A stretch of DNA of 20,577 nt, from NCBI GenBank assembly GCA_027492035.1, contig JAOZFT010000041.1, positions 1 through 20,577 of the forward strand, read 5' to 3'. Shown here one piece after another: positions 61-19,266 of this stretch. The stretch's first letter is position 1. Each line of letters starts with the position of its first letter. Under the pieces are notes generated by a model. It saw nothing but the letters and a program-made list of their open reading frames with translations, searched no databases and was not told where the DNA came from. A program made the position numbers and the translations under genes. Origin of the DNA: Thermoproteota archaeon. Its GTDB lineage: Archaea; Korarchaeota; JAOZGF01; JAOZFZ01.

Positions 61-151
61 GGACCTTTACGTGGCCTCGAGAATAGCAAACCTTAAAATA
101 GAGGAATTCAATGAATTAAGAAAGAAGGCGGGGATACCTAACGTTGCCTGA
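1..151 (+). CDS. 5'-truncated small antitoxin-like HTH protein (UPF0175-like), paralog of 688..915
   Basis: Frame from base 2 reads FIEKQPPKIKAALKYYIKEGDLYVASRIANLKIEEFNELRKKAGIPNVA* (TGA 149-151). It aligns end-to-end with the C-terminal part of 688..915 and overlaps the PIN gene TTG start by 8 bp. Not in the ORF track. Confidence 0.8.
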   Translation, partial: FIEKQPPKIKAALKYYIKEGDLYVASRIANLKIEEFNELRKKAGIPNVA

Positions 152-722
152 AACAGCTATAGCTGATACTTGTTTCCTCATAGACTGGGCAAGGTATAGG
201 AGAAGAGATATTTTGTTTGAATTGTTCTCAACGGTTTTCGTACCTGAACAAGTCCTTGACGAAGTTGTGAGTGAAGAAACAATTGAGTGGATCGCTAACT
301 CCTTAGCTAAGAGGAAACTTTCTTTATATGTTGCTCCATCATCAATTGCGGATGAAGCTTTAAAGATAATTGATGTGATGGCTTCGTTAACTTGGACGCG
401 AAGAGTGGAGCTTCCAGAAGCCATATGTTTAGCAATTGGAAAGAAACATGGCTACACTGTTTTAACAGAGAACAGAGGCGCTTTACAAGCTGTTGAAATC
501 TTAACTGAGTACTCAGGTGTCAAGGCGATGAGGGCAATCGATGTTTTAGCTGAAGCTATTTCTACATCAAAAATCACCGTTTTAAGTCGAGAAGAAGTTA
601 AATCTATTCTTTCAGAGTATGAAAAGGACACCAAACATAGATTTCCAAAGGGGGATGTTAAAGAAATAATTGAAAGGGTGATCTCTCGTGGAGGAAATAA
701 AGAAGAAGTGGGAGAGGCTTGA
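144..722 (+). CDS. PIN-domain ribonuclease, VapC-like toxin (DUF3368/COG2405-like)
   Basis: N-terminal IADTCFLID strand, VPEQVLDEV helix, ELPEAICLA and VLTEN motifs; coupled to a small upstream gene. Confidence 0.85.
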   Translation: MPETAIADTCFLIDWARYRRRDILFELFSTVFVPEQVLDEVVSEETIEWIANSLAKRKLSLYVAPSSIADEALKIIDVMASLTWTRRVELPEAICLAIGKKHGYTVLTENRGALQAVEILTEYSGVKAMRAIDVLAEAISTSKITVLSREEVKSILSEYEKDTKHRFPKGDVKEIIERVISRGGNKEEVGEA

Positions 723-3457: not shown

Positions 3458-3670
3458 TCATAGCTGCGGGTTTAATCCCCAAATTGTTAAAGGGTAAAGT
3501 GGCATGATCGGTGTGTAAGTAAATAAATCATTGATTAAGTGGTTAATTGTAGCTGTAAACTCGGAAACAAACCCAATAGGGAAGCTGCTCCAATTGTAGA
3601 GGCCCCCGAATAATACTCCTAAGATTACGCCGAAGATTACTCCTGCAAGCAAGGTATGATTTCTCTGCAA
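3458..3670 (-). CDS. Possible small membrane protein or remnant
   Basis: Glycine-rich hydrophobic helix LLAGVIFGVILGVLFGG; TTG start, no family recognised. Confidence 0.35.
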   Translation of the reverse strand: MQRNHTLLAGVIFGVILGVLFGGLYNWSSFPIGFVSEFTATINHLINDLFTYTPIMPLYPLTIWGLNPQL

Positions 3671-3829
3671 TGCTTTACAAGCGGCTTCATTTCCAAATCA
3701 ATGTCTAGAAGCGCTGAAGAAGCAGTTATAAAAGTGCATACAACGATAACGGTTGAAGCTTCCCGCTTAATCCGTTTAGGCATACATCTAAGTTTATTTT
3801 TAAAAATAACCTAAGAAAACTGTAATGCA

Positions 3830-4525
3830 TTAAATCTTTGGAAGTATTTCTGCGTATTTCTTTATCCTCATCAGCTTTCCTTCTGGCTGTATTAGCCATG
3901 TCATCCAGCATAGCTCTACAGGTTTATATCCGCAAGTTAAAGCTATTTCTTCAGCTTTCTTAGTAAACTCTATATCATCGTTTATAGGCTCTAAACCAGC
4001 TTTAACCAGAATTTCATTAATCACTCGCTTAACAACCTTGTCAGGCATTACGGTATCGACACCGCCCATCATCCTTAAGTATTGGAATGTAATCAAGCCT
4101 ACACCCTTAATTCTTCCAATAGGGTCCTTTCTCCAATTTTCAAGCTTAGCATTTTTAGCCCAAGTTCTCAAAGCAATCTTATCGATGTCGCTTAAGGTTG
4201 AGAGGTATGAAGCTATTTGCTTAGCTATAAACCAAGACCTCCTATTCCTCCATACACTTCTTAACTCATTAACATCAGCCTCAGCTAGATCCTTTAAGCC
4301 TTTAATTTTTCCGGTCTCAACAAACTTTTCACAGAATTCCTCTACCTTCGGTACAACAGCTGTGAAGTAGTTTAACCCGATTGAAGTAAAAGCTGCATCA
4401 ACAACCATTAAAACCACGCTACCGTTCCATCTCTCAGTTTTAAGACATCTAGAACAAAACCTCTCTATTCCAGAAACCTTATGCATATAGCTGTCAACTA
4501 CACGCTTCAACTCCATCAAGACCAC
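3830..4525 (-). CDS. Uncharacterised HhH-GPD-like (DNA glycosylase superfamily) protein
   Basis: Helix-hairpin-helix IGRIKGVGLITFQYL followed by DTVMPD with the conserved Asp; N-terminal CSRC. The real start may be the ATG at 4516. Confidence 0.72.
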   Translation of the reverse strand: MVLMELKRVVDSYMHKVSGIERFCSRCLKTERWNGSVVLMVVDAAFTSIGLNYFTAVVPKVEEFCEKFVETGKIKGLKDLAEADVNELRSVWRNRRSWFIAKQIASYLSTLSDIDKIALRTWAKNAKLENWRKDPIGRIKGVGLITFQYLRMMGGVDTVMPDKVVKRVINEILVKAGLEPINDDIEFTKKAEEIALTCGYKPVELCWMTWLIQPEGKLMRIKKYAEILPKI

Positions 4526-5416: not shown

Positions 5417-6742
5417 CTAAACGTTCAGACATCCAAGAAAAACACTTACAGGCACAGCTAAGGGTTCCTCGTTAAATTCCTCTTTGGTTAAAGTTATGAC
5501 ACTTTTAATTTTTCCTACTTTTAACATGGTTATCTTTGGTTTTTTCTTGTATTTCACTTCTATTCCCAATATTTCATCACCAAAAGCTGCTATGTCTATT
5601 TCTCTCTTGTCCTTCCAGTAACCAACTTTGTACCTTCTAGCCAAGTGGGATGCAACTATGCTTTCCACCATTACCGGATCTTCAGGTTTTTTAGTGAAAC
5701 ACCAAAATGAAAAAACTTGGTAGAGAAAGGGATCTGTAATGTGCATCTTTCTCTGCTTGTGGAATACTTCTATTCCCTTGTTGGGATCTATATAGTAAAG
5801 AATCTTTAGGAGAAAGAGTTTTTCCAGTGTATCTATGTAATAGAACACTGTTTTGTGGGATTTAATTTCAAACTCCTTTGCAATCCCATGAAAACTTACT
5901 GTGGATGGAACCTTCTCTATTACGGCTTTAAGGATCCTCTTCATTATGCTTTCGTTTCTTCTTAGCTTTGCAATATCCCCCTTTATCCAGCTTAAATATG
6001 TATCGATCACACCGGTTGAAACCTCATTCCTTTCCAGCAGAGATTTTACAGCTAGGGGAAACCCTCCGCATCGAAGGTAAGATTCAAAAATCTTGTTTAG
6101 CTCATCCAACCAAGGCAAACTCTTTAAGCACGCTTTCCTTATTTCCTCTTTCCTCAAAGTTTTTATTTCCCCTATGTTTTCAAACACTTCCTTATTAACA
6201 ATCCCTATGAATTCCCTGAAGCTTAAAGGATACATAACAAAATCTTTTCCTCCTCCTCTCCTCCCCGGAAAAGTTTCGATTTCCCTTTTGGCAAACATGC
6301 TTAATGACCCTGTTAACACAAGAACGTCATCCTTGAAGTTCCCCATATCAACATGCCACTTTATAGCTCTATACCACTCCCTTGGAAAAGTCACTTCATC
6401 TAAAAGAATAAAAGACGTCTTGATTTTTTCAGCTTCCTTTATTTTCAAGTACTCCCTAATAATTTCATCCAATTCTTTAAAATCAGCCAATTGGTCGCAT
6501 CTAAAATAGAAAATAGCCTTTGGAGTTATTTCTTCCAGTAACCTCTTTACCAAAAGCTTCAATAAAGTAGTTTTACCCACTTGTCTAGGTCCAAAAACAA
6601 AATGGAGAGAATAAGGCTTAACCCCTATTTCCTCAATGATCCGTGGCACCCATTTTATTTTGCTCTCTTTCCACTTCCTGAAATCTTCATCCTTCTCTAT
6701 GTATTCCTCCCCTTTCCACCAGGGATTGTACTCTTCAAGCAT
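5417..6742 (-). CDS. AAA+ ATPase with DUF4143 domain (COG1373 family)
   Basis: YNPWW N-terminus, Walker A GPRQVGKT, Walker B ILLDEV, LTGS, FPGR, PLSFREF, GGFP and C-terminal EIDI...IEVK PD-(D/E)xK-like motif. Confidence 0.93.
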   Translation of the reverse strand: MLEEYNPWWKGEEYIEKDEDFRKWKESKIKWVPRIIEEIGVKPYSLHFVFGPRQVGKTTLLKLLVKRLLEEITPKAIFYFRCDQLADFKELDEIIREYLKIKEAEKIKTSFILLDEVTFPREWYRAIKWHVDMGNFKDDVLVLTGSLSMFAKREIETFPGRRGGGKDFVMYPLSFREFIGIVNKEVFENIGEIKTLRKEEIRKACLKSLPWLDELNKIFESYLRCGGFPLAVKSLLERNEVSTGVIDTYLSWIKGDIAKLRRNESIMKRILKAVIEKVPSTVSFHGIAKEFEIKSHKTVFYYIDTLEKLFLLKILYYIDPNKGIEVFHKQRKMHITDPFLYQVFSFWCFTKKPEDPVMVESIVASHLARRYKVGYWKDKREIDIAAFGDEILGIEVKYKKKPKITMLKVGKIKSVITLTKEEFNEEPLAVPVSVFLGCLNV

Positions 6743-9524: not shown

Positions 9525-9767
9525 ATGATGGAAAAATCAAAGATTCAAAGAAGGTTCACTTTAACCATTCCAAAATCTATCAGGAAAGCTGCTAGTCTTA
9601 AAGAAGGAGACGTGGTGTACTGGAGTTTTGTAAATGGTAAAATAATTCTCACTAAACCTTCATTCAAGGCTTTCAGGTCCAGATTTAAAGTTAGCTTTAA
9701 AACATTATCTGATGCTGAAAAGGAAATTCTTGACAAAGCTTTCTTAGAAGAGGCATCTAGAAAGTGA
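9525..9767 (+). CDS. vapB: AbrB/MazE/SpoVT-family antitoxin
   Basis: SKIQRRFTLTIPKSIRKAASLKEGDVV swapped-hairpin motif; GTGA overlap with the downstream PIN gene. Confidence 0.9.
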   Translation: MMEKSKIQRRFTLTIPKSIRKAASLKEGDVVYWSFVNGKIILTKPSFKAFRSRFKVSFKTLSDAEKEILDKAFLEEASRK

Positions 9768-10204
9768 ATTATTTAATTGATTTAAATGTGCTTCTAGCGT
9801 ACTCCTTCGAACTCCACAACGAACATGAAAGTGCAGACAGATTCTTCACCTTAGCTGAAAATGAGGAATGGAGCATTCACTTGTCTTCTATAGCCATATT
9901 AGAAGCCGAAACCTTGTTTCTGTCAGGGAAAGTTAATGTTGAAAGGGAAGAATGGTTAAATTTTATTCATGACATATTAACCTCACCCGTTCTCAGGATT
10001 ATTGAGATTTCACCTAAAATATTTCTCTACCACACCTTTTATTACAGGGGGTATGGAGGAAAATACAGCTACTTTGACTCCTTCCATGTTGCAACAGCCA
10101 GAGAAACATCTCTGCCACTTGCCACGCTTGACAATAAAATATTAGCTGAAAAAACAATAAAAGCAGTCAATTTGAGAGATTTTAAAGGGGTAAAATCAAC
10201 CTAG
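9764..10204 (+). CDS. vapC: VapC PIN-domain ribonuclease toxin
   Basis: LIDLNVL, ILEAE, YFDSFHVATA and LATLD provide the four acidic PIN residues. Confidence 0.92.
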   Translation: MNYLIDLNVLLAYSFELHNEHESADRFFTLAENEEWSIHLSSIAILEAETLFLSGKVNVEREEWLNFIHDILTSPVLRIIEISPKIFLYHTFYYRGYGGKYSYFDSFHVATARETSLPLATLDNKILAEKTIKAVNLRDFKGVKST

Positions 10205-12159: not shown

Positions 12160-12398
12160 TCCGTGTTTCGAAAAATTCATTTTGCATTTCCTCAGATTCC
12201 TTCTCAAATTCTTCAAAAGTTGTTTCAGCAAATTTCGGCCCCGTCAAAGCAAACTCAAAAGGGTCAGGTATAGGTTCTATTATTATTTTCCTTTTCTCAA
12301 CCACGTAATTCACTTCCGCTCCCCTCCCTGAAACCTAACTTCCTCAGTAACTTTTTAGGTAAGTAAAACTCTCCCTTTTACCTATTTACCCTTTACAT
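12143..12398 (-). pseudogene. Decayed AbrB-family antitoxin
   Basis: M*RVNR*KGEFYLPKKLLRKLGFREG, then a frameshift, then EVNYVVEKRKIIIEPIPDPFEFALTGPKFAETTFEEFEKESEEMQNEFFETRNENTS*. Confidence 0.8.
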
Positions 12399-12641
12399 TT
12401 CGCCACCGGTAAAACCTATTAAAAAATGGCGTATTTAAATTTACAGGTAAACCAATATTTTTCAGGTATAATAAGAAAAATTAAAATGTAACTTTCTCCC
12501 GCTTAAAATTTTTCAAACATAAACAATATTGCAAAATAACAGATGCTTTGCTTACGTTTGCACACAAAACAAATGTAGGGTCGCAAAAAACAAAAAGGTT
12601 CTAAATGGGGAAAAGTAAAACAGAAATTCACAGAAACTTTT

Positions 12642-14066
12642 TTATGTTTTTTTCAAACTTTTAAACCCTGTTTTCGCCTTCACTATTTTTATTATGTGTT
12701 CATCCTCTTCAATGAAACCATAAGTTAACACAACTGTTTCACCCTTTTCCAATTTCCCAAGCTGCATAAGTTTTTTATATGTGTTGTTAACTCCTTCCAT
12801 GTAGTTTTCAGCTTCAACCTTTAAAGGTTTAACGCCCCAAACAATTGAAAGCTTCCTTAAAACATTTACATCTGAAGATGCAGCGTAAAAAGGTATTGCA
12901 GGTCTAAACCTTGAAATTCTGAAGGCTGTTCTTCCTTTACGAGTGTAAACAGCCAATTTAGCATTCAAGGATTCAGACAAGAAAACAACTCCCTCTGCAA
13001 ACTTTGTTTTAACACTGAAACCTAAATGCTCCTCCCTCCTACGAAGCACCCTATCTTTACATGCTTCAATTATTTTCTTCAACCACTTAACAGTTTCAAT
13101 AGGGTACTTACCTACAGCTGTTTCACCGGTTAACATTACACCGTCAGCTCCCTCCCTCACTGTTTCAGCAATATCTGAAACTTCAGCCCTGGTGGGGGTT
13201 GGGTTACTTATCATTGAAGCAAGGATTTGGGTTGCAACAATCACAGGTTTCCCAGCCTTAAGACTCTTAAGTACTATGTTCTCCTGAAGCTTAGGCACTT
13301 CCTCAAGTGGAAACTGCATCCCCAAATCTCCCCTCGCAACTATAATGGCATCTGACAAAGGAATTATTTCCTCCATGTTTTCAACCCCCTTTACAGTTTC
13401 AATTTTAGCCATTACAGCCATGTCAGCCTTTTCTTTTTCAATAACTTCCCTAACCTTCTCTAAATCCTCCCCTTTCTTAACGTAACTTACAGCTATGTAA
13501 GTGAAACCGTTCCGAGCTGCAAACTTTATGTTTTCCACATCCTCACTTGTTAAGGAAGGAGTATCTATATCTAAACCACGAACCACCAAGGTTTTCCTTG
13601 AAGAAACAAAACCTTGAGTTAAAGCTGAAGCCCTTATTTCATCTTCACACTTCCCCTTAACCTTAAACACTAAACTTCCGTCATCCATTAAAATTTCGTT
13701 TCCAACCTTTACAGCCCTGTAAAACTCATCAACAGGAAGAGGAAACACCAACTTCGAATCCTCAACATACTTTGCATTTATAAACTTGACTTCATCGCCA
13801 CGTTTTATTTCAGCCTTCCCTCTTATGTCCCCCAACCTTATAGAAGCCCCCTTCAAATCTCCTATAATTGCCACATAAGTTCCAAGTTTCTCTTCAACAC
13901 ACAAAATATTTTTAAGATATTTAACCCATTCAGATTTATTTCCATGGCTGAAGTTAATCCTAAAACCTGAAACCCCATCCTTAACCATTTCCAACAATTT
14001 ATTTTCAGCAGAGGTTGAAGGACCAAGCGTTGAAACCATTTTAACAGGAACAGTCCCAAAAAACAT
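12642..14066 (-). CDS. pyk: Pyruvate kinase
   Basis: STLGPS, RINFSHG, AKIE, VARGDLG, ATQILASM..NPTPTRAEVSD and MLTGETAVGKYP motifs. Confidence 0.98.
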   Translation of the reverse strand: MFFGTVPVKMVSTLGPSTSAENKLLEMVKDGVSGFRINFSHGNKSEWVKYLKNILCVEEKLGTYVAIIGDLKGASIRLGDIRGKAEIKRGDEVKFINAKYVEDSKLVFPLPVDEFYRAVKVGNEILMDDGSLVFKVKGKCEDEIRASALTQGFVSSRKTLVVRGLDIDTPSLTSEDVENIKFAARNGFTYIAVSYVKKGEDLEKVREVIEKEKADMAVMAKIETVKGVENMEEIIPLSDAIIVARGDLGMQFPLEEVPKLQENIVLKSLKAGKPVIVATQILASMISNPTPTRAEVSDIAETVREGADGVMLTGETAVGKYPIETVKWLKKIIEACKDRVLRRREEHLGFSVKTKFAEGVVFLSESLNAKLAVYTRKGRTAFRISRFRPAIPFYAASSDVNVLRKLSIVWGVKPLKVEAENYMEGVNNTYKKLMQLGKLEKGETVVLTYGFIEEDEHIIKIVKAKTGFKSLKKT

Positions 14067-14716
14067 AACGCTTCCACCAGAAAAAACAAATTATTCCAAC
14101 TTAATTCATCCCAAATTTAAACATAAGTTTCCAAAAGTAAAAAAATTAATTAAACCATTAAAACACAAGAGATTAAAGAAAGGAAAAAAAGAAAAAGGCT
14201 GAAAAAGCTTTCACTAAATACCTCAAAAAAGATATACTGCTCCGTAATCACTGTAACTTCTAATAACTACCCAACAAATTATCTCCTTTAACACCAAAAA
14301 TAATTATCTTTCCTGTCTCCCCTGGATCAATGAACCAACCCTACAAACTCCGTTAAAAAACATGCGGACTAGCACCCATGAAGCTCATATCACAAGTTCA
14401 CTTTTTGGAACAATATAAAGAGTTCGCCCTTAAAATGCCACATAAAAAATGGACATACTACTAAAAAAGATTTGGATTCTCTAAATTTTTAACTTATGGA
14501 TTTGTAAGCCATTTAACCATTTAATAAAATTGGTTCCTGAAATTTTTTACTTAGTTTTTTATTCGTTAAAGATTTTAAATGAGTAGGTGAAATGATGTAC
14601 CCGGGGGTAACTTCGGCTTTATAAACATTCCAAAAAGGTTAAGTTTGTTACTTCAATTGTTTATCTGAGGTTGGTTGGGAGGTTAAGTGTTACCTTAGTT
14701 TTTGGTGGTGAAAAGT

Positions 14717-15388
14717 ATGGATTTATCCCTTGCTGTAAAGAATATTGGGAAAGTTAAGGAGGTTAGTTTAACTGAATTAGAGGAAATGGCTGTAAGGGTT
14801 TCTAACGAATTGAAGAGAATGATTAAGGAGGAGTTGCTAGGTAAAGTGGAGGATTTCTATGCTGGTGCTGCTTTTCATTTAAGTTTAGAAATTTTTAGGA
14901 GACGTGTTGAGAGGGAACTTAACGTTTTATTTCCTGCAGGTGAACCTGACGCTGTAATTGCTACTTTAGGTTTCACTCCTCAACCTCTTATTTTGCTTCT
15001 ATATGCCTTGCATCCCCGTTACTTCTTTGTTTTAGCTTCCCACGAAACAGCCCCTGTTTCTAGCCACGTTCTCAAGTTTACTGACGAACTTGGTTGGGAA
15101 AGTTTTCGTTACCAAGTTTTCACTGTTAAAAAGGATGACCCTGTCAGTATTGAAGAAGAAGCAGGGAAAGCTTTAAAACTTCTTCTTGAAGAAAAGGAAA
15201 CAGTTAATGGTGTTTGTGTAGATATTACAGGTGGAACAAAACTTATGAGTGCAAAAACAGCTGTTTATGTTTACAACAACTTAAGAAATGCTGGTGTCCC
15301 CGTTTATTTGACTTATGTAGCTTCCAACCAAATTTCTCGGACTATCTCTGAACCTGGAAGTGAAAAACTGGTTGTTATGCCCCTTTAA
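14717..15388 (+). CDS. Stand-alone CARF-domain protein with N-terminal helical extension
   Basis: CARF motif I ATLGFTPQPLIL, LASHET, motif II VDITGGTKLMSA, LTYV and EPGSEKL tail. ATG 14717 follows a GGTGGTGA RBS (the ORF track starts at 14702). Confidence 0.85.
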   Translation: MDLSLAVKNIGKVKEVSLTELEEMAVRVSNELKRMIKEELLGKVEDFYAGAAFHLSLEIFRRRVERELNVLFPAGEPDAVIATLGFTPQPLILLLYALHPRYFFVLASHETAPVSSHVLKFTDELGWESFRYQVFTVKKDDPVSIEEEAGKALKLLLEEKETVNGVCVDITGGTKLMSAKTAVYVYNNLRNAGVPVYLTYVASNQISRTISEPGSEKLVVMPL

Positions 15389-15998
15389 ATCCTTCAATCC
15401 TTTTAGAGAGAAAGAGTCATAGAAGAAACTTAAAGCCTTCCATAGAGAATCAGCAACTTCAGAAAATATTGTAGGTCCTAGAGCCTAAGCTACACCAAAA
15501 CCCTTTTAATATTTATTGGGTTAGAGAGGCCTAATTTTTCATGTATATGTTTAAATACAATATAAATATGAAATACCCAAACACATCAACATTAGGAAAG
15601 CAAAAGAAAAAGCTAACTCACTCAAAACCTTTATGAAAGCCCTAGAAGACCCCTAAGAAACACAGCTAAAAAATATCCACCTTCATGCTTCTGCAAAACA
15701 CACTTTAAATGTGGAAGCTCCCCCACCACATATACTTAAGTTTAATTATCAATCGAAAACTTAGCAGAACAGGAAAATGAAAAATTTATAAAGCGATATG
15801 CATGTCTATTTTTATCCTTTAATTATTCCTTTAAAGTGAGTGTGATGCCTTACCAATCCCAGTCTCACTAAACAAATTAATCTACCTGGCCAGTTTACTC
15901 CATAACTTATACCCATGCCTTTTCCCCTCTAAAACCTTTAAACTTTCCAGGTTAAACGCTTTTCCCAAAACTTTTTTTAAACATAGAGAGGTGGTGAC

Positions 15999-16611
15999 AT
16001 GGATAAAATAGTTGTGTTTGACATGGAAAGCGTCTTAATAAATGGTGAGTATCTTTCCATGCCTTGCTGAAGCAGTGAACCCTGAACTAAAAAGTAAAAT
16101 AGAAGTAACAACAGAACTTGCTTTACAGGGGAAAATAGACTGGGTTACTGGGTTAAAGAAAAGGATTAATCTGCTTAAAAACATTGTCGATAAGGACTTA
16201 GCATTAAAAGTTGCATCTAAATTAACCTATGTTAAAGGAGCCAAGAAAACCTTGAAAAAATTGAAGAAAAGAGGATACCACCTAGTTGTGATAACAGGGG
16301 GTTTCGATATCGTAGCGAAAAGACTTGAAAAGGAATTTAAGATAGAGGTGATATGTAACGAATTAGTTTTTGACGGAAACAAACTTGTCGATGTCAAAAT
16401 AAAAGTTGCAGATAAATCACTGGTTTTCAAGGAAAGATTTCACTCTGCACCCTACGCGGTAATCGGGGATGGAGCTAACGACTTAAACTTAATGAAAGAG
16501 GCAAAGTTAAAGATAGGTTACAACCCGAAACACATAGTTAAACAATACCTTGAAAAAAACAACGGAAAAATAATTTATAACCTGGAAGACTTGTTAAAGA
16601 TATTAAAATAA
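15999..16611 (+). pseudogene. serB: Phosphoserine phosphatase (HAD family) with one +1 frameshift
   Basis: GAGGTGGTGA RBS, then MDKIVVFDMESVLINGEYL. One extra T at 16054-16056 separates this from PCLAEAV...ITGGF...IGDGANDL. Span is 613 nt (3n+1). Confidence 0.85.
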
Positions 16612-17417: not shown

Positions 17418-17693
17418 TTTATTTATTGCGAAACTTCAAGGGCAACGTTTACTGAATTAAGTCGTCATTATCCTACAAAATTTGTAGCAACATATGATTC
17501 AAGAGTTGGTGATGCGACAGTGGTAATTGCAAAGGCATTTGCCAGTCCATATCTGATAGAAAGAATTGAGAAAGAGGGGAGAGAAGGGTTAATAAAAAGA
17601 ATTATACATCTTGGTTCTGACTATTACAAAATAACAGAGAAAGGCCGAGAAATTATTATTCCTCTTCTCGAGAAGAAGAGAAGCGTTATATGA
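17418..17693 (+). pseudogene. Winged-helix protein remnant
   Basis: 91-codon open frame with no early start: ATFTELSRHYP...EGLIKRIIHLGSDYYKITEKGREII, ending in the Y.ITEKG wing motif. Confidence 0.45.
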
Positions 17694-17788: not shown

Positions 17789-18553
17789 TTAAAGTAGACT
17801 TGTTTCTATGAGTTTCTCTATTTCTCCTTTTACTTTCTTGAATGAAGGTAAATTTGTAACTAGAGGTTTTAGTTCTGTCCCCCACTTGATTTTTACATCT
17901 TCTAAGCACATTAAAAACCTTTTTTCATCGAATTTCAGGTTGTAATACCCCAGTTTTTTCTCCACTATGCTTTTCTTGGCTTTTACTCCTTTCCTTAACA
18001 GGAACCAAAGGTCGTACATGTCTCTTGCCCTTGATCTTCTAACCATTGCTCTAATTTTCTCTGCTAAAATTTCCTCTAGGTGCATCACAGGTAGAAAATA
18101 GGGTCTTAAATCAGGGTAAACAGGGATTACCTCTATAACTTTAGGCTCTAAAAGTAAGTCTTTCCTTAAACTGATTTCCATCCTTAAATTTGAAATGGTT
18201 TTTTCAGTTCCATCATATAAAGGCCCCTTAACCTTTAAAGTGATGTTTTTGGAGTGTCTTTTCTCTTCTACCTTGAACAGTTCACATGGGAAACCGAAGT
18301 TTGTTATGTCTCTGGAAACCTTTTCAATAGATTCCCTGATTTCATTGATGGTTAATGTGAAGTCAAGGCCTATACTGAATCTGTTCAACCCAAATATTTT
18401 TTGCAAAGCTGTTCCACCCTTAAAAACCAGTCCTCTCTTAATTCTTTGCGATAAAAACAAAAGTAGGATATGTTGCAGGTAATCCTTTTCTGTTTGCCAA
18501 ACATTGAAACCGGTAACTTTTGTCAGTTCCGTAAGTTCAACTTTACTCAGCAC
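17789..18553 (-). CDS. abiEii: Type IV TA toxin, AbiEii/AbiGii nucleotidyltransferase (catalytic Asp apparently lost)
   Basis: EKDY, FKGGTAL, RFSIGLDF, EEILAEKIRA and RARDMYDL motifs; start overlaps the antitoxin stop. Confidence 0.93.
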   Translation of the reverse strand: MLSKVELTELTKVTGFNVWQTEKDYLQHILLLFLSQRIKRGLVFKGGTALQKIFGLNRFSIGLDFTLTINEIRESIEKVSRDITNFGFPCELFKVEEKRHSKNITLKVKGPLYDGTEKTISNLRMEISLRKDLLLEPKVIEVIPVYPDLRPYFLPVMHLEEILAEKIRAMVRRSRARDMYDLWFLLRKGVKAKKSIVEKKLGYYNLKFDEKRFLMCLEDVKIKWGTELKPLVTNLPSFKKVKGEIEKLIETSLL

Positions 18554-19266
18554 TACTCCAGCACCTCATTAATTATTAGTTTCCATTTTCTGTTTTTAAC
18601 CCCTGTTGAAGGGGAGAATGGGTTTAGTTTCACAAAATTCCCCGTTAAACCTTTTTTAGTGCGGGTGGAGATATCTACGCCTTTCAACTCTAATAGATAA
18701 CCTAGTCTTTTCAGTAAGGCGTCTGACCTCATCCTTAATGCATAATTTAAAGTTTTATCTAGATCCAGATTTGAATGGGTTAAAGCAAAAAATGTTTCTT
18801 GGATAGGGCAATATTTCGGTAGATATAAGCTGTCAATGATTGCTTTTTCCACTTCTGCGACAAACAGAAACTTATTGTTTAAAATTTCCCTTTTAAACCC
18901 GAAAAATCTATGCTTTTGAAACTTTACAAACTTTATGGAGGTGTTGTTGCAGCGAATTTCCTTTCTCTGCTTTAATGAAACCACAAAATAGGTGTTAGGT
19001 ATTTGTGTTGTTAACTTATGGTAGCTGAGAGCAGAAAGAAACGAAATGTAAGAGGGAAAAACCACGTTAGATGCAACTAAAAAGGGGTTAGACTCGATGA
19101 AATACTTGCCCTTTTCTAATCTAAACAATAAACCCTTCTTAACTAAACGGTTTATAAAAACCTTTGTATATCCTTCACTCTTATTCAAAATTTTAACGAG
19201 ATCAGGAAATTCAAAAACAGCTCTCCTAGAGTTACGCAGGACACTTAGAAACTTATAACTTTTCAT
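18553..19266 (-). CDS. abiEi: Type IV TA antitoxin, AbiEi-family transcriptional regulator
   Basis: N-terminal winged helix (RLVKKGLLFRLEKGKY), PSYISFLSALSYHKLTTQIP, EKAIIDSL and KRLGYLLE motifs. Confidence 0.92.
   Translation of the reverse strand: MKSYKFLSVLRNSRRAVFEFPDLVKILNKSEGYTKVFINRLVKKGLLFRLEKGKYFIESNPFLVASNVVFPSYISFLSALSYHKLTTQIPNTYFVVSLKQRKEIRCNNTSIKFVKFQKHRFFGFKREILNNKFLFVAEVEKAIIDSLYLPKYCPIQETFFALTHSNLDLDKTLNYALRMRSDALLKRLGYLLELKGVDISTRTKKGLTGNFVKLNPFSPSTGVKNRKWKLIINEVLE

Follow-up and report, generated by a model that had tools for sequence, protein, structure and literature searches.

Csm6 of Thermus thermophilus (TtCsm6, TTHB152; PDB 5FSH, 8JBB, 8JBC, and 8JH1) is a self-limiting ribonuclease activated by cyclic tetra-adenylate (cA4), in which a CARF domain is followed by a 6H/helix-turn-helix (6H/HTH) domain and a HEPN domain. 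Crn1 proteins (Sso2081, Sso1393, Sis0455, and Sis0811) are stand-alone CARF proteins of <250 amino acids (aa) whose hallmark is that a homodimer cleaves cA4 to A2>P without a metal, and the CARF domain of TtCsm6 is more similar to Crn1 than to the CARF domains of other Csm6 proteins (PMC10897365). Here, we describe a gene on contig JAOZFT010000041.1 of a Thermoproteota archaeon. The whole 20,577-bp contig, labelled C32, is the window of our analysis and belongs to a draft assembly of 1.87 Mb in 42 contigs (93% complete); the host is an archaeon, its small-subunit rRNA matching the archaeal Rfam model at 1508 bits. The protein in question, P0001, is the 223-aa product of the open reading frame (ORF) at 14717–15388 (+). 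Sequence and model comparisons identify P0001 as the complete N-terminal CARF module of the TtCsm6 family, and it may well have been kept as a stand-alone protein that binds cA4 or acts as a ring nuclease, after the Csm6 from which it derives had decayed.

Like TtCsm6, P0001 has motif I, the motif II Lys, and the equivalents of T81, E83, Y161, and E179, and its residues ~16–223 superpose on TtCsm6 1–186, N-terminal helices included. Unlike TtCsm6, it has no 6H/HTH and HEPN domains and hence no RNase output, its mobile loop is two residues shorter and without the Tyr/Arg/Arg, it shares ~21% identity, and it is not encoded in an intact cas locus. By descent, P0001 is assigned to the TtCsm6 CARF clade, but, missing the 6H and HEPN features, it does not count as a Csm6. 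The likeness to Crn1 lies in the small stand-alone CARF architecture, the 223 aa of P0001 falling under the ≤250-aa cut-off used for such proteins (PMC12409355), and in the Crn1-type catalytic pair of a motif I Ser/Thr and a motif II Lys, here T87 and K175; the Ser of motif I and the Lys of motif II are also what stand-alone Crn1 enzymes rely on (PMC9638899). The family profile described below matched Sso2081 with an E-value of only 2.3e-8, and the structural Z score of P0001 to Crn1 was 12.3–12.9, vs 18.9 to TtCsm6; at the level of sequence families, P0001 cannot be assigned to Crn1 on these values. Unlike Crn1, P0001 has a 75-residue N-terminal helical extension and is encoded away from an intact type III locus; unlike Sis0455, it is without a C-terminal insertion, and unlike Sis0811, without a winged HTH (wHTH) domain. 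By analogy, P0001 would work like a Crn1-type ring nuclease, if it is active at all.

A CARF-alone architecture is already catalogued by PADLOC/Makarova as “CARF1--CARF,” and the nearest ESM Atlas clusters consist of 191–205-aa CARF proteins, one of which is named SSO1393-like ring nuclease (score 0.90, a lead only). On sequence grounds, it seems more probable that P0001 lost its effector half separately, within its own lineage, than that it belongs to an established stand-alone clade. The CARF core of Cam1, a CRISPR-associated membrane protein composed of transmembrane helices and a CARF domain (PDB 8T64–66), is also very similar to that of P0001 (Z 17.3–18.4 over model residues 54–223). Unlike those of Cam1, the N-terminal helices of P0001 are amphipathic; within residues 1–75, the Kyte-Doolittle mean over 19 residues peaks at 0.56, so that a membrane segment is not expected.

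The P0001 gene and its product

Homologues were collected by an exhaustive HMMER search of 1.84 billion representatives (E ≤ 1e-3). Alignment A1 comprises P0001, 24 of the 26 relatives obtained, and L009, a 508-aa homologue from a genome of the same phylum; P0021 and P0027, which are without the N-terminal helical part, were excluded. The features of the gene and its 3′ flank are as follows.

14618–14625 (+): candidate archaeal TATA box TTTATAAA, ~90 nt 5′ of the ATG, proposed from reading the sequence
14704–14711 (+): Shine-Dalgarno (SD)-like GGTGGTGA, 5 nt 5′ of the ATG, 7 of 8 bases fitting the complement of the 16S anti-SD
14717–15388 (+): ORF of P0001, the stand-alone TtCsm6-type CARF module, 223 aa plus stop (ORF calling, PADLOC, AlphaFold2 [AF2], and VIA-align)
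14717–14941 (+): N-terminal helical region, residues 1–75 (AF2 helices 3–71), matching TtCsm6 residues ~1–50
14960–14986 (+): CARF motif I ATLGFTPQP, residues 82–90, with G85/F86/T87 equivalent to TtCsm6 G58/T59/S60
15221–15241 (+): CARF motif II DITGGTK, residues 169–175, with T171/G173/K175 equivalent to TtCsm6 T133/G135/K137
15314–15316 (+): Y200, equivalent to TtCsm6 Y161 and invariant in its A1 column (position counted on the profile alignment)
15323–15364 (+): mobile-loop equivalent, residues 203–216, SNQISRTISEPGSE, two residues shorter than the TtCsm6 loop
15389–15998 (no strand): non-coding stretch where the 6H/HEPN half would be, with no detectable remnant

The frame is open from TTG 14702, an alternative in-frame start, or ATG 14717 to the stop codon at 15386–15388 (+), and ATG 14717 is the likely start. 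The 16S rRNA 3′ end of the genome reads ...GGATCACCTCCT, and SD-like 5-mers occur upstream of 25.8% of 1092 long ORFs of the genome, vs 6.6% at a control offset. A promoter and terminator scan of the window gave results no better than shuffled sequences, the scan being bacterial (sigma-70 sites only, for promoters) and the host archaeal, and Rfam and tRNA scans of the window gave no match. The codon usage of the P0001 gene lies at the 87th percentile among the 1092 ORFs, and its GC content is typical (38.6% vs 37.4 ± 2.5%). A near-identical copy, P0002, is encoded in a second assembly on a separate 3862-bp contig; it is identical at 221 of 223 residues, both changes lying in residues 1–9, and has the same end. 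The C-terminus of P0001 reads ...EPGSEKLVVMPL directly before the stop codon, just as a first-pass annotation of this contig had reported.

The best PADLOC models for P0001 were of the CARF1--CARF_HEPN type, PDLC01801 reaching an E-value of 5.9e-16 over model positions 7–153 of 441 only, whereas the stand-alone model PDLC01794 (“CARF1--CARF”) matched far more weakly (E 5.2e-5). For the labels “CARF1” and “CARF7,” we assume the meaning suggested by the PADLOC model names and by a sentence in PMC12409355. The Pfam CARF_Card1 model scored 23.5 bits, below its cut-off of 24.6, and NCBIfam gave a weak match to TIGR02710, a family of CARF proteins; none of the Pfam or NCBIfam models passed its cut-off on P0001. 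A phmmer search of the PDB sequences with P0001 as the only query yielded chance matches to pilins, which were rejected. The family profile from A1 matched TtCsm6 (5FSH and 8JBB) over its full length with an E-value of 2.9e-65.

The AF2 model of P0001 (predicted local distance difference test [pLDDT] 92.8, predicted template-modelling score [pTM] 0.89) has helices at residues 3–71 and its first strand at 79–83. About 75 helical residues precede the first strand, in line with the roughly 70 helical residues noted in the first-pass annotation. In Foldseek, the top match was 5fsh_A (E 3.9e-12), and the 98 matches at E ≤ 0.001 were headed by Csm6, Cam1, Can2, and Card1. VIA-align placed model residues 24–223 on TtCsm6 8jbb_A 3–186 with a Z score of 18.9 and a root-mean-square deviation (rmsd) of 2.6 Å over 180 residues; across the TtCsm6 entries, Z was 18.6–18.9 and rmsd 2.6–3.2 Å over 180–188 residues (model 16/24–223), and the best 50 PDB rows were all CARF proteins (Z 10.7–18.9). 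AF2, VIA-align, and Foldseek thus agree that P0001 has the Rossmann-like fold of the CARF superfamily. The earlier suggestion that P0001 resembles the N-terminal half of a longer Csm6-like protein is borne out by the profile match and by the superposition on TtCsm6 1–186. P222-L223 align with TtCsm6 P185-N186, and P0001 stops one residue short of P187; because the model ends at TtCsm6 residue 186, P0001 is judged, from alignment and model, to end one residue before the start of the 6H/HTH domain. The N-terminal helical region was found in 24 of 25 aligned relatives, and the same comparisons indicate that the helices are part of the family's CARF module, neither an added effector nor membrane-spanning. 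The two-copy complex prediction for P0001 scored 0.18, against a mark of 0.42.

In TtCsm6, the residues that bind and cut cA4 include T59/S60, T81, E83, and T133/G135/K137; Y161 and N164 serve cA4 cleavage, Y161 being dispensable for binding, and K137A abolishes cA4 binding (PMC10897365). The mobile loop comprises Y167/R172/R173/E179, and single mutants in this loop lost HEPN activation (PMC10897365). In P0001, both CARF motifs are intact, as first noted from the DNA: motif I (G-x-S/T) follows strand 1 and motif II (T-G-G-T-K) follows strand 4. G85, T171, G173, and K175 are invariant across the 26 rows of A1, and the profile alignment shows the Lys-to-Ala change of K137A at motif II in PDB entry 8jbc. 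By the alignments, the retained equivalents are S60→T87, T81→S108, E83→E110, T133/G135/K137→T171/G173/K175, Y161→Y200, and E179→E216. The mean CARF-core identity of P0001 to the relatives (0.28) lies within the range of the intact full-length members (0.21–0.37), among them P0029 (0.24) and the phylum-mate L009 (0.21).

Relatives and the missing effector half

The exhaustive search returned 28 matches, namely P0002 (the same protein), P0003, and 26 relatives; P0003, a repeat protein matched in 8 stretches, was discarded as spurious. Seventeen of the relatives are 437–593 aa long, three are 353–364 aa, and six are 218–241 aa. The first-pass annotation had held that double-length close homologues with a C-terminal effector would speak against a stand-alone protein; the length distribution comes near to this, none of the relatives being closer than 37% identity. 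The long relatives in A1 have a helical middle region and a C-terminal R-N-x5-H motif, and Pfam identified Csm6_6H together with Csm6 HEPN in P0004 and P0021, the two long metagenomic relatives tested. In two further metagenomic relatives, P0006 and P0024, the TtCsm6-type CARF module, N-terminal helices included, is joined to TIR_2 (E 6e-11 and 1e-17, respectively) in place of 6H-HEPN. L009 gave a Csm6 HEPN match below the Pfam cut-off and no 6H match. As for the short relatives, P0009, P0015, P0026, and P0027 extend into the 6H linker by alignment or Pfam and are fragment-like, and P0012 and P0028 end ~20 residues past the CARF domain; the 353-aa P0018 also reads as fragment-like. To judge from these comparisons, all of the tested relatives either have an effector or are pieces of longer forms. 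P0001 and the full-length Csm6 of a phylum-mate genome share an insertion of 6 residues behind motif II, suggesting that the gene is native to its lineage and was derived by loss. Word-index searches found only P0002 at near lengths and nothing among longer proteins, and searches for related loci in metagenome contigs and genome contigs were negative with P0001 as the query, as was a query with P0012. When 42 other genomes of the phylum were queried with the profile, 5 of the 42 had CARF matches, none of them of the short P0001 type.

No trace of the missing half was detected. A HEPN domain with an R-x4-6-H motif is missing from the P0001 ORF, and neither P0001 nor the downstream frames matched Csm6_6H. 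A hidden Markov model (HMM) of the relatives' C-terminal halves (hmmsearch --max) scored <0 bits throughout the six frames of 15200–16100 and the whole window, and the best match that it reached among the genome's stop-to-stop ORFs of ≥40 aa had an E-value of 0.79. Pfam found no family in the six frames of 15389–16044 (stops read as X), and neither did PADLOC in the three plus-strand frames. The Csm6 HEPN model PF09670 had no match genome-wide, the T. thermophilus control being positive, and the spacer at 15389–15998 is not repeated elsewhere in the genome. The claim that no HEPN or nuclease follows P0001 is upheld by these searches, with neither 6H nor HEPN in any frame; the accompanying claim that the downstream frames close within about 30 codons was too low, since the plus-strand frames run for up to 41 codons.

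The decaying contig and the intact type III locus

The surroundings of the P0001 gene on C32 contain the following features.

144–722 (+): PDC-S70 candidate, defence-island content
5417–6742 (-): AAA_14/DUF4143 ATPase, PADLOC PDC-S01 type, defence-island content
9525–10204 (+): MazE-like antitoxin and PIN toxin, defence-island content
12398–12625 (+): cas6 pseudogene, a 3′ remnant with three in-frame stops (tblastn core 12515–12592)
12642–14066 (-): pyruvate kinase gene pyk, the divergent neighbour (Pfam PK E 2.3e-93, plus PK_C)
15999–16611 (+): HAD/serB-like gene, frameshifted, with 15999–16070 and 16042–16611 in different frames
17466–17525 (+): probable csx3 (Crn3) remnant (tblastn against residues 67–86 of the 103 of C37 Csx3)
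17789–19266 (-): AbiEii/AbiEi pair, intact (Pfam/PADLOC annotation of the window)

The gaps of the window were compared with all ORFs of the genome and then with those of contig C37, which carries a type III locus described below. The core of the cas6 remnant matches the C37 Cas6 over 26 residues (250–275 of 294; 65% identity, 81% positives, 42.4 bits, E 1.6e-8), the control of 10 shuffles of the gaps giving ≤29.6 bits; its nucleotide identity to C37:2053–2130 is 73%, and the similarity continues upstream across the stops. This remnant is convergent with pyk and ends ~20 nt from the pyk stop codon. The probable csx3 remnant (20 aa, 65% identity, 31.6 bits, E 1.5e-5) is borderline, the best shuffle reaching 29.3 bits, with a weak independent match to the PADLOC Csx3 model PDLC01294 (E 0.042); it runs in frame into a 57-aa wHTH-like ORF (17520–17693) without a family match. 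The 20.6-kb contig holds no intact cas gene, only these two remnants. The first-pass statement that no CRISPR-Cas genes lie nearby therefore holds for intact genes but overlooked the cas6 remnant and the probable csx3 remnant.

The divergent orientation to pyk and the position upstream of serB, both described earlier, were confirmed, and the serB-like gene proved to be frameshifted itself. Its first 23 codons (MDKIVVFDMESV...) are out of frame with the 189-aa main ORF, and its first HAD motif is DMESV, not DxDxT; either a pseudogene or an assembly indel would account for it. The pyk protein had no match at E ≤ 1e-10 in genomes of the same family and the same order. The non-coding DNA flanking the P0001 gene measures 650 nt and 610 nt. 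Long frames in the window are separated by eleven gaps of ≥300 nt, of which nine measure about 500 nt or more; the nine gap stretches searched gave no repeats in the genome except short paralogous patches to C35 and C37. The AbiEi and the ATPase of the window have C37 paralogues (59% and 32% identity, respectively). From the cas6 and csx3 remnants, the low ORF coverage given below, and the defence genes, we conclude that the P0001 gene lies in a defence-island-like stretch that is decaying and formerly contained CRISPR accessory genes.

Contig C37 carries an intact type III-D-like locus (L008, G000:C37, 385–19846). It encodes an 880-aa Cas10 with GGDD at residue 637, which answers the earlier question of a cas10 elsewhere in the genome, and a Csx1 of the CARF2-HEPN type (423 aa) whose gene is abutted by that of Csx3/Crn3 (PF09620, E 1.5e-32). 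The locus also encodes Cas6, Csm2, several Csm3-like proteins, Cas5-IIID, a weak Card1-like 427-aa protein, a wHTH-CARF_m5 regulator, a PIN protein, and a DUF4143 protein, and its cas4 is split into two ORFs (3654–3998 and 4018–4305). Csx3/Crn3 is specific for cA4 (PMC12409355). The genome thus has a source of cyclic oligoadenylate (cOA) in trans, with cA4 as its most likely product. A cyclic oligonucleotide-based antiphage signaling system (CBASS), which had also been proposed for checking, was represented only by a sub-threshold SMODS match (21.8 bits) to a C9 frame of 494 aa. No CRISPR array emerged when the assembly was scanned by exact 22-mer spacing, a result of little weight as arrays often remain unassembled.

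Contig-end overlaps join many contigs of the assembly, such as the right end of C37 to the left end of C3, but not C32. Three further short CARF proteins in the genome are combined CARF and wHTH regulators. Besides the C37 regulator, these include its wHTH-CARF paralogue (G000:C9:516396–517070, +) and a Csa3-like CARF-wHTH protein (G000:C21:103743–104609, +), both encoded far from the cas locus; the Csa3-like protein has an ortholog in a genome of the same order (L017, 950–1714).

Possible functions and origins of P0001

Under the reading that we prefer, with confidence about evenly balanced, a gene for a TtCsm6-type (CARF-6H-HEPN) ribonuclease would have lost its 6H and HEPN domains, the ancestral csm6 having been located in a second, now decayed neighbourhood of CRISPR accessory genes. 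We infer that P0001 would still be produced and would form a homodimer, as other CARF proteins do, binding cA4 that could be supplied by the intact Cas10 of the C37 locus. Having no nuclease domain, it would not be an effector but might act in trans as a cA4 sink, most likely as a slow Crn1-like ring nuclease that would convert cA4 to A2>P via the motif I Thr, the motif II Lys, and Tyr200, and it may damp the Csx1 response beside the Csx3/Crn3 of the C37 locus itself. The first-pass proposal of a ring-nuclease or signal-sink variant is thus plausible in view of the retained cA4 residues, although weakened by the loss in the mobile loop; its suggestion of a new variant does not hold, because short stand-alone CARF proteins are common. 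The P0001 frame is whole, whereas the neighbouring cas6 and csx3 are 20–75-codon fragments with stops, and on the strength of the SD-like site, codon use, divergence, intactness, and the P0002 copy, the ORF looks maintained. More tentatively, and with some doubt, the locus could represent a snapshot of the birth of a ring nuclease, in which a Csm6 of a dying CRISPR locus lost its toxic HEPN half exactly at the domain boundary, the CARF module, which in this family already cleaves cA4, was kept by selection as a cA4 sink in trans, and the allosteric relay loop, having become dispensable, drifted; such a sink would tune the Csx1 response of the surviving type III-D locus.

Several observations weigh against a retained function and are compatible with a quite possible alternative, that P0001 is an inert piece of a csm6 pseudogene whose 3′ half was deleted as a second type III or accessory locus decayed, the frame being open merely because little time has elapsed. 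In the mobile loop, Y167 is replaced by I206, R172/R173 are deleted, and P174 is replaced by S211, and the TtCsm6 triple mutant Y167A/R172A/R173A lost cA4 cleavage (PMC10897365). P0001 keeps 17 of the 24 columns that are ≥70% conserved, most relatives keeping ~0.9 of them, and it scores 56 bits with a PADLOC model that gives 80–104 bits for other family members. The C37 locus already has a dedicated ring nuclease in Csx3, and few loci carry two ring nucleases (10 of 242; PMC12409355). All 26 relatives are ≤37% identical to P0001, and a query with P0001 matched only 1 of the 42 other genomes of the phylum, with a 512-aa form; the gene is an orphan apart from its near-identical copy, and with no ortholog in other genomes, cross-species conservation cannot be shown. 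Most relatives are full-length, two are CARF-TIR fusions, and four of the six short ones are fragment-like, as is P0018. Furthermore, the gene lies beside a frameshifted gene and between pieces of cas pseudogenes, on a contig whose ORF coverage (stop-to-stop, ≥100 aa) is 59.4% vs 86.2% genome-wide, the lowest among 22 contigs of >15 kb. A clean, recent deletion would leave exactly such an intact ORF without any selection.

The inert-remnant explanation nevertheless has to accommodate a break that is residue-exact at the CARF/6H boundary and a lost half that leaves no trace in ~610 nt downstream, indicating either a clean deletion or an old event; if the event was old, a 223-codon frame in DNA of 36% GC would not survive by chance. 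The gene has kept its start codon and SD-like site, its codon usage is well adapted, and divergence is no greater than that of intact family members. The ligand contacts are kept, and the losses are concentrated in the loop through which TtCsm6 passes the signal on to HEPN, the pattern expected from relaxed constraint on the relay alone. It is improbable that P0001 is instead a non-catalytic cA4 sensor that regulates a partner in trans, such as a toxin of the island (AbiE, VapC) or the adjacent pyk or serB-like genes. The binding residues K175, S108, and E110 are kept, the window contains defence genes, and the P0001 gene is divergent from pyk, all of which would suit a sensor, but P0001 has no output domain, its N-terminal helices belong to the CARF module, its long non-coding flanks leave it without an operon partner, the three CARF-wHTH regulators already serve transcriptional output, and the neighbourhood is conserved in no other genome, hence providing no linkage argument. 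We found nothing to support the earlier idea that P0001 is a sensor whose target is pyk, serB, or an island toxin. Finally, a sequencing frameshift or a chimeric contig that cut a full-length csm6 is very improbable. Although the adjoining serB-like gene is frameshifted and the genome is a 42-contig draft, the six downstream frames show no 6H or HEPN similarity, both PF09670 and the C-terminal HMM were negative across this 93%-complete assembly, and the 223-aa protein recurs, with an unchanged end, on an independent contig; a frameshift artefact or a split gene is therefore unlikely.

If P0001 is active, it would represent a documented CRISPR effector stripped to its sensor/ring-nuclease domain, would connect the Csm6 CARF clade to stand-alone enzymes of the Crn1 type, and would indicate that cOA-degrading capacity persists outside cas loci; surveys based on loci (within 6 kb of cas10, PMC12409355) would miss such genes. 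If it is inert, it would simply be a fragment that has survived in good condition while the defence island around it decays. In neither case does it constitute a new class of system; it is a possible intermediate on the path from a self-limiting effector to a stand-alone ring nuclease, and calls of “orphan CARF” should be checked against nearby cas pseudogene debris and type III loci on other contigs.

In relatives from the same phylum, stand-alone CARF proteins of 156 and 161 aa are encoded at L018 (G020:C62, 1426–2641, -) and L015 (G027:C6, 538–1968). They accompany the loci of these relatives and are likely Crn1/Csx14-type ring nucleases; each adjoins a CARF protein of ~250 aa, and the pair in G020 also lies beside the full-length 508-aa Csm6.

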